NCBI RefSeq assembly: GCF_003334785.1
Contig: NZ_QOWV01000007.1
Source: Escherichia coli
GTDB lineage: Bacteria; Pseudomonadota; Gammaproteobacteria; Enterobacterales; Enterobacteriaceae
Length of the DNA: 64,000 bases
Reading direction: 5' to 3' (one strand)
The translations under genes and the position numbers were made by a program. The notes under the pieces are model-generated. The model made no database searches. It had not been told where the DNA came from and was given only the letters and a program-made list of their open reading frames with translations. This document shows positions 1 to 7,890 of this stretch, in pieces (position 1 is the first letter of the stretch; each line of letters opens with the position of its first letter).

Positions 1-170
1 AGCTACCGTTTCCAGTAGTTATCCCCCTCCATCAGGCAGTTTCCCAGACATTACTCACCCGTCCGCCACTCGTCAGCAAAGAAGCAAGCTTCTTCCTGTT
101 ACCGTTCGACTTGCATGTGTTAGGCCTGCCGCCAGCGTTCAATCTGAGCCATGATCAAACTCTTCAATTT
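1..170 (-). rRNA. rrsH: 16S ribosomal RNA, 5' end only (gene continues beyond window start)
   Basis: Reverse complement of 1..170 reads AAATTGAAGAGTTTGATCATGGCTCAGATTGAACGCTGGCGGCAGGCCTAACACATGCAAGTCGAACGG..., the canonical 16S 5' end; mature 5' end at window 170. Operon identity inferred from flanking gmhB. Confidence 0.95.
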
Positions 171-301
171 AAAAGTTTGATGCTCAAAGAATTAAACTTC
201 GTAATGAATTACGTGTTCACTCTTGAGACTTGGTATTCATTTTTCGTCTTGCGACGTTAAGAATCCGTATCTTCGAGTGCCCACACAGATTGTCTGATAA
301 A

Positions 302-313
302 TTGTTAAAGAGC
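302..313 (-). promoter_or_regulatory. rrn leader boxA antitermination element
   Basis: Minus strand reads GCTCTTTAACAA within TGCTCTTTAACAATTTATCAGACAATCTGTGTGGGCACTCG, the conserved rrn leader boxA context. Confidence 0.7.
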
Positions 314-354
314 AGTTGCGACGCGGCTTTCAGCTCACTGTCGCGAGGTGGCGT

Positions 355-382
355 ATATTACGCTTTCCTCTTTCAGAGTCAA
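355..382 (-). promoter_or_regulatory. rrn P2 promoter (-35 TTGACT / -10 TAATAT)
   Basis: Minus strand: TTGACT (window 377-382), 16-nt spacer, TAATAT (355-360), about 185 nt upstream of the mature 16S end. Confidence 0.6.
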
Positions 383-464
383 CCCTGAATTTCAGGATTT
401 TTCTCTTCAACCGAACCGGCTGTTTGTGTGAAGTGATTCACATCCGCCGTGTCGATGGAGGCGC

Positions 465-520
465 ATTATAGGGAGTCGGCTCAGGAAGACAAGCGGAAAA
501 ATGCATTTTTATTTCAACCG
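465..520 (-). promoter_or_regulatory. rrn P1 promoter with A/T-rich UP element
   Basis: Minus strand reads CTTGTCTTCCTGAGCCGACTCCCTATAATGCGCCTCC (-10 TATAAT at 465-470, -35 TTGTC near 487-492), with A/T-rich TTGAAATAAAAATGCATTTTT immediately upstream (496-520). Confidence 0.7.
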
Positions 521-532
521 CTCATCTTTTAA

Positions 533-1108
533 TCATTGTGCCGGTTTTTGCTGCTTTTTTATCGCTTGCGGCAGGTCTGCCAGGCTATTTAACACCCAAT
601 CCGCCGCGTTTTCTGCTTCAGGCGTAATAGGTTTACCCGTACGCACCAGCACTTTTGTTCCCACGTTCGCCGCAACCGCTGCCTGCATATCTTCTAATTT
701 ATCGCCCACCATATAAGAAGCGGCCATATCAATATGCAAATAATCGCGTGCTGACAAAAGCATCCCCGGATGTGGTTTGCGGCAATCGCAGACCTGGCGA
801 AACTCTTCAACACTACCCTGCGGATGATGCGGGCAATAATAGATACCATCCAGATCGACATCTCGGTCCGCCAGCGACCAGTCCATCCACTCGGTCAGCG
901 TTTCAAACTGTGCTTCGGTAAATTTACCGCGAGCAATGCCAGACTGGTTGGTTACTACCACCAGCGCAAAGCCCATTTTTTTTAGCTCGCGCATGGCGTC
1001 AATAACACCGTCGATAAATTCAAAGTTGTCGATCTCATGGACATAGCCGTGATCGACATTAATGGTGCCATCACGGTCAAGAAAAATTGCGGGTACGCTC
1101 TTCGCCAC
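533..1108 (-). CDS. gmhB: D-glycero-beta-D-manno-heptose-1,7-bisphosphate 7-phosphatase (HAD family)
   Basis: 191-aa ORF with HAD motif FLDRDGTIN near the N-terminus; length and position match gmhB upstream of the rrn operon. Confidence 0.93.

Positions 1109-7764: not shown

Positions 7765-7890
<126 letters not shown>

Follow-up and report, generated by a model that had tools for sequence, protein, structure and literature searches.

How can the end of a protein-coding gene and the upstream activating region of a ribosomal RNA promoter occupy the same DNA? The question is raised by one end of the window (the whole stretch of Escherichia coli DNA analyzed here, 64,000 nucleotides long), where the initial annotation had read tandem rrn promoters, an UP element, and boxA on the minus strand against the 3' end of gmhB, and had argued that activator sites would have to overlap gmhB and place its last codons under a dual constraint. 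Positions 100 to 1300 of the window are 100% identical to K-12-type E. coli genomes, e.g., J53, and match all 5,426 complete E. coli genomes; by the annotation of J53 (metN, gmhB, 16S rRNA gene), the window is the reverse complement of metN-gmhB-rrnH. The reading frame next to the promoter encodes GmhB, the HAD-family heptose 1,7-bisphosphate phosphatase: all 191 residues align with residues 21 to 211 of PDB 2gmw with 0 differences, and the protein annotated at the J53 locus, where the DNA is 100% identical, is WP_001140187.1. We regard it as very probable (roughly 94%, for the joint reading with P1, UP element, Fis sites, P2, and boxA) that this region is the upstream control region of the E. 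coli rrnH rRNA operon. The main elements, apart from the Fis sites, are as follows.

1..170, minus strand: 5' part of the rrsH 16S rRNA gene, the rest being cut by the window edge (Rfam SSU_rRNA_bacteria, 111 bits, model positions 1-164; RefSeq annotation of the identical J53 locus).
302..314, minus strand: boxA TGCTCTTTAACAA, antitermination element of the rrn leader (invariant in all seven K-12 rrn leaders).
347..382, minus strand: rrnH P2, with -35 TTGACT (382..377), 16-bp spacer, -10 TAATAT (360..355), and a predicted start near C347 (consensus scan; core columns invariant in seven operons).
456..492, minus strand: rrnH P1 core, with -35 TTGTCT (492..487), 16-bp spacer, -10 TATAAT (470..465), GC-rich discriminator GCGCCTCC (464..457), and putative start A456 (consensus scan; rrn alignment).
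496..516, minus strand: UP element (-60..-40), an A-tract followed by a T-tract, with the palindrome AAAAATGCATTTTT at 510..497 (in register with the rrnB P1 UP element).
533..1108, minus strand: gmhB coding sequence, 191 amino acids, GTG start, TGA stop at 535..533 (open reading frame list; RefSeq WP_001140187.1; identical to PDB 2gmw).

Several lines of evidence identify the promoter elements. Rfam places the 5' end of the 16S rRNA at window position 170 on the minus strand, and a consensus scan returned 5 promoter-like sites, compared with an expectation of 1.9 from shuffled sequences. When the other six K-12 rrn upstream regions were fetched and anchored on TATAATGCGCC, P1 fell into register in all seven; in the alignment from -65 to position +10 of the 16S rRNA, the P1 -10 hexamer with its GCGCC discriminator, the P2 core, and the stretch from boxA through the 16S start are invariant. 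P1 has the near-consensus hexamers, 16-bp spacer, and GC-rich discriminator before the start that are expected of an rrn P1 core. Contigs of 72 among the first 81 aligned species extend this far, and in these the P1 columns from -19 to -6 are 100% conserved, two of them excepted (84% and 96%). By homology to rrnB P1, transcription would start at A456, 286 nt upstream of the 16S rRNA, and by analogy with rrnB P2, the second start probably lies near C347, 109 nt downstream of the first; these distances fit the spacing of an rrn P1 (about 290 nt to the mature 16S rRNA, with P2 about 110 to 120 nt farther on). The boxA sequence is an exact match at 314..302, downstream of P2 and 132 to 144 nt upstream of the 16S rRNA; its role in antitermination is well established. 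At -40..-60, the sequence TGAAATAAAAATGCATTTTTC is A/T-rich, as in the UP element of an rrn P1, its detailed fit to the published UP consensus being poor, and its columns are mostly 85 to 98% conserved across Enterobacteriaceae. The tandem promoters, UP element, and boxA named in the initial annotation are thus all present, in register with rrnB and the other K-12 operons and at about the predicted 130 to 350 nt upstream of the 16S rRNA. The UP element does adjoin the gmhB stop codon as described, but the gap to its -60 edge measures 16 bases (532..517), not about 13.

Some further features of this region were noted in passing. A perfect 14-bp palindrome (AAAAATGCATTTTT, window 497-510, minus strand), largely conserved across Enterobacteriaceae, forms the core of the UP element. 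In a comparison over window 171-456, two sequence types can be told apart between P1 and boxA among the seven K-12 rrn operons, one comprising rrnH, rrnE, and rrnD (P2 -10 TAATAT) and the other rrnB, rrnA, rrnC, and rrnG (TATTAT), a pattern that suggests a mosaic produced by gene conversion. From about +59 of P1 onward (equivalent to window positions of about 346-397), the O157:H7 copy loses register with that of K-12, which points to an indel in the P1-P2 spacer. Elsewhere in the window, Rfam reports a match to naRNA4 (nucleoid-associated noncoding RNA 4, CssrE) at 7807-7883 on the minus strand (92.8 bits).

The part of the question that concerns gmhB turns on the Fis sites. We scored 15-mers by a simple home-made scheme based on rules taken from PMC3547798 (G at -7, C at +7, R at -3, Y at +3, no A at -4, no T at +4, and an A/T-rich center). 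As a control, it recovered rrnB sites I and III at exactly -71 and -143 and found the -71 site in six of the seven operons. In rrnH, the scheme returned matches at -71 (score 8.0), -91 (7.5), -122 (7.0), and -134 (8.5); a 90-bp stretch thus holds three scores of 7.5 or more, where the 64-kb window would lead one to expect 0.47 (Poisson P = 0.012). Coordinates were converted as MG1655 coordinate = 223941 minus window coordinate, and U00096.2 and U00096.3 coordinates are assumed by us to coincide at the rrnH locus, which is the basis for mapping the Table S3 entries below. EcoCyc lists four Fis sites here (MG1655 coordinates; Table S3 of PMC3547798).

520..534, minus strand: Fis site I, center -71, GATTAAAAGATGAGC, overlapping G534 and A533 of the gmhB stop codon (EcoCyc 223407-223421; rule score 8.0).
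540..554, minus strand: Fis site II, center -91, GCAGCAAAAACCGGC, inside gmhB codons 185-190 (EcoCyc 223387-223401).
583..597, minus strand: Fis site III, center -134, GGGTGTTAAATAGCC, inside gmhB codons 171-176 (EcoCyc 223344-223358; ChIP-chip overlap).
630..644, minus strand: Fis site IV, center -181, GCGTACGGGTAAACC, inside gmhB codons 155-160, weak and not conserved (EcoCyc 223297-223311; score 5.5 by the same rules).

The mapping is corroborated by the rrnB entries, which land on -71, -102, and -143, and by the exact coincidence of three rrnH sites with our predictions. The -134 site is also overlapped by a Fis region from ChIP-chip (Cho et al.) at 223332-223381, i.e., -153..-104 (Table S3 of PMC3547798), and for the operon as a whole, gel shifts with a roughly 500-bp rrnH probe agreed with the number of Fis sites previously reported and were accompanied by reporter data from a fis mutant (PMC4696680). 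The rule scan, the conservation described below, and the EcoCyc list all give a Fis site I at -71 with further sites upstream, as at other rrn P1 promoters. Two candidates were set aside: a site at -102, as in rrnB, is excluded by eye in rrnH, with A at -4 and G at +7, and the match at -122 is conserved in only 28% of species and is absent from EcoCyc. Our literature search found no paper on gmhB together with rrnH, and what it found under rrnH P1 gives no site positions. Since gmhB is co-directional with rrnH and ends 77 bp before the P1 start, with its stop codon at -79..-77, sites II to IV fall within gmhB codons 155 to 190 and site I shares two bases with the stop codon, so that the overlap of activator sites with gmhB is borne out.

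To follow this overlap through the family, we took one genome per species, giving 80 Enterobacteriaceae gmhB loci, and added five complete genomes (Serratia, Yersinia, Erwinia, Hafnia, and Dickeya); counts are given over 86 species. Among about 615 positions, the best-conserved matches to the Fis rules are those at -71 (100%), -91 (93%), and -134 (85%), and these coincide exactly with EcoCyc sites, to which EcoCyc adds -181. At site I, G-78 (-7) and C-64 (+7) are present in 86/86 species, A never occurs at -4 nor T at +4, and positions -6 to -4 vary freely, which is the textbook Fis pattern. At site II, G-98 and C-84 are likewise found in 86/86 species among variable neighbors, C-84 being invariant in coding (15% of species) and intergenic contexts alike. 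The site III motif passes the rule in 85% of species, but the protein sequence also dictates most of its key bases. Site IV has its -7 G, which falls at a third codon position, in only 53/86 species. Since the key bases of sites I and II are invariant, those of site III are mostly protein-fixed, and that of site IV is often lost, constraint on the Fis sites declines with distance from the promoter.

The spacing of the region is as constant as its key bases. The alignment is gapless, and in 77/77 species in which P1 is visible (86 sampled), the first base of the -10 hexamer lies 638 nt past the gmhB start. SNPs in the six sampled E. coli strains lie outside the key Fis bases. Serratia, Yersinia, Erwinia, Hafnia, and Dickeya (5/5) keep the gmhB-rrn junction in register, and among these five outgroups there is none in which gmhB is not followed by rrn. 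The synteny of metI-metN and gmhB-rrn is maintained from Escherichia to Dickeya and Yersinia. In most of the draft genomes among the 80 loci, the contig stops 50 to 500 bp after gmhB, because the rRNA repeat breaks assemblies at the conserved junction.

Does the overlap leave a mark on the codons of gmhB? No broad synonymous constraint was found at the 3' end: windowed diversity over codons 161 to 184 is 0.93 to 1.0 of expectation, and third-position conservation is 0.619 for codons 161 to 185 versus 0.627 for codons 16 to 160 (p = 0.70), showing no excess for the block. Conservation of 98.5% or more is reached at only 3 of the 175 degenerate third positions, those of the GTG start codon, codon 184, and codon 185. 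Codon 184 is AAA in 85/86 species, its third base being the A at -101, and the third base of codon 185 is G-98, the -7 G of the -91 Fis site, present in 86/86. Codon 185 always ends in G though its residue is K, M, Q, S, or T depending on the species, and the other Lys columns of gmhB use AAG in 13 to 61% of species. Start codon apart, the only two synonymous sites in gmhB that are frozen thus both lie at the Fis contact edge, and the substitution pattern indicates a local synonymous constraint, on codons 184 and 185 and the bases just after, rather than a broad one. Fis matches and an excess of synonymous conservation, whose absence would have spoken against the initial annotation, are thus both present, but the dual constraint it predicted holds for codons 184 and 185 and fails for the last 25 codons as a block. 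At the other end of the gene, synonymous diversity over codons 1 to 18 (window about 1055-1108) is reduced to 0.61 to 0.70 of expectation. No other part of gmhB is under broad synonymous constraint, and the reduction presumably reflects translation initiation from the GTG start.

The protein end of gmhB behaves differently across species. Its stop codon occurs at six positions in the 86 species, giving GmhB of 185 (1 species), 186 (9), 187 (9), 188 (54), 190 (10), or 191 (3) amino acids, and it lies inside Fis site II in 73/86. Variation is found even within E. coli: at window position 538 (promoter position -82), a C/T polymorphism switches between Gln190 (CAA) and a TAA stop. The four sampled strains with T, namely, JJ1886 (which we take to be B2), APEC O1, AVS0453, and CRECJHTL34, have a 190-amino-acid GmhB, and K-12, O157, and O145 have the 191-amino-acid form. 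The K-12 90-mer at 496-585 is matched exactly by only 1,215 of 5,425 genomes. In the GmhB alignment, L176, L179, P180, and I183 are invariant and nothing past K184 is conserved. The AlphaFold2 model (mean pLDDT 83.6) has a terminal helix at residues 176 to 187 and falls below a pLDDT of 50 at residues 189 to 191, and the PDB chains of 3l8e comprise residues 1 to 187 only. The tail past about residue 185 therefore appears dispensable, which explains why the position of the stop codon can shift over DNA that is itself fixed.

Other explanations were weighed against this reading. In one, the protein sequence would by accident give rise to the Fis-like motifs within gmhB, and only site I, which is noncoding in most species, would be functional. 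Such an explanation agrees with the absence of any excess of third-position conservation over the last 25 codons and with windowed ratios of 0.93 to 1.0, as well as with the key bases of site III, mostly first and second codon positions fixed by conserved residues, and with the loss of the -7 G of site IV in all but 53/86 species. It does not, however, account for G-98, which is invariant despite five different residues at codon 185, nor for C-84, which is invariant in coding and intergenic contexts with variable bases on both sides, and it has to contend with the listing of all four sites in EcoCyc and the ChIP-chip coverage of site III. We consider it unlikely as a whole; for sites III and IV taken separately, a by-product reading is plausible, and for site II it is not. 

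Two RNA-based explanations concern codons 184 and 185 and the gap after the stop codon, respectively, and we judge each of them to be highly improbable. Codons 184 and 185 (AAA AAG) might be invariant as part of A_AAA_AAG (window 560..554, minus strand), a dnaX-type -1 frameshift site yielding an alternative GmhB tail, and in K-12 the heptamer is indeed in the slippery frame, (AT)A AAA AAG, with a -1 shift leading to an alternative tail of 10 residues. The full heptamer, however, is present in only 23/86 species, with mostly C or T at the first position, and the G is kept where codon 185 is ATG, CAG, ACG, or TCG, none of which is slippery; RNAalifold moreover finds no conserved structure downstream over -82..-25, a stretch that begins after the first 15 nt past the heptamer. 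A dnaX-type heptamer is therefore rejected as the cause of the conservation of codons 184 and 185, and A_AAA_AAG in the gmhB tail is probably incidental. Alternatively, the conservation seen from the stop codon to the -35 hexamer might reflect an RNA hairpin that terminates gmhB transcripts, given that K-12 RNA can fold as GAUGAGCGG...CCGCUUGUC around the UP palindrome. This fold, though, is not significant (z = -1.69, with 10 of 200 shuffles as good), the terminator scan returned nothing on the minus strand, and RNAalifold on 76 distinct sequences predicts no pairs. An intrinsic terminator at the gmhB 3' end is rejected, as a conserved GC-rich hairpin with a U-tract was not found.

A control region shared between an rrn P1 and the gene upstream remains the preferred reading, with no observation against it, and it has close parallels. 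In K-12, the upstream genes murI (rrnB), hemG (rrnA), gmhB (rrnH), and clpB (rrnG) end at -84..-82, -88..-86, -79..-77, and -154..-152, respectively, and all are co-directional, whereas rrnC, rrnD, and rrnE have divergent upstream neighbors. The rrnB P1, downstream of murI, resembles that of rrnH in its Fis site I at -71, its UP element, its identical -10 hexamer and discriminator, and its co-directional upstream gene, and the murI coding sequence contains rrnB Fis sites II and III (bioRxiv 10.1101/2024.03.27.586983). It differs in its upstream Fis sites (-102 and -143 versus -91, -134, and -181 in rrnH) and in its -35 hexamer (TTGTCA versus TTGTCT), and rrnH goes one step beyond it in that the stop codon shares 2 bp with site I. 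At rrnA, downstream of hemG, EcoCyc places Fis sites at -71, -91, -111, and -133, which include the -71/-91 pair of rrnH; there, the -91 site overlaps the hemG stop codon and two further sites lie in the hemG coding sequence, but its core promoter and leader follow the rrnB type, rrnH belonging instead with rrnE and rrnD. A stable-RNA promoter outside the rrn operons, that of tyrT, has three Fis sites, one of them in the reading frame of the co-directional purU (bioRxiv 10.1101/2024.03.27.586983), with the difference that it drives a tRNA operon and rrnH an rRNA operon.

How the region would work follows from the element identities and positions, the cataloged Fis sites, and the conservation pattern, which are observed here, combined with what the literature and the sequence suggest of Fis and alpha contacts, activation, and read-through. 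Sigma-70 RNA polymerase would initiate at A456 of P1 through its near-consensus core, with the C-terminal domains of its alpha subunits expected, from the literature, to bind the A/T-rich UP element at -40..-60. Fis dimers at -71, -91, -134, and -181 would activate P1, the dimer at -71 touching alpha and the upstream dimers adding activation, and the GC-rich discriminator would confer sensitivity to ppGpp/DksA and to NTPs. P2 lies 109 nt downstream, followed by the leader with boxA, which is expected to nucleate antitermination, and then by the 16S rRNA. The activating region has a fixed geometry, and the gmhB frame continues into stop-rich, A/T-rich DNA up to the first stop; because no terminator lies in the 77-bp gap, gmhB transcripts would be expected to read through into P1. 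It is tempting to go further and to describe the last residues of GmhB as 'translated promoter DNA', with the end of the reading frame drifting over an indel-free Fis/UP scaffold and, given that there is no terminator between gmhB and rrnH, with gmhB transcription and translation ending within Fis sites II and I and so perhaps physically altering Fis occupancy. If true, this would couple the expression of an LPS-core gene to rrnH P1 activity, although we hold it to be quite unlikely.

To conclude, rrnH P1, P2, the UP element, and boxA abutting gmhB are already known, with the promoter, UP element, and Fis sites cataloged; the overlap arrangement is ordinary among rRNA operons, and the overlap of rrn Fis sites with an upstream coding sequence has been explicitly described for rrnB and murI. 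What is added here is modest new detail, namely, a synonymous constraint limited to pinpoint sites and a stop codon that drifts while the scaffold stays free of indels, and its importance past good annotation is small. As the constraint is confined to codons 184 and 185 and the protein tail is labile, the conflict between coding and regulation is small and is largely settled in the promoter's favor. The locus thereby provides a clean worked example of how an overlap between Fis sites and a coding sequence is accommodated, the regulatory geometry being frozen while the GmhB tail is free to change length.
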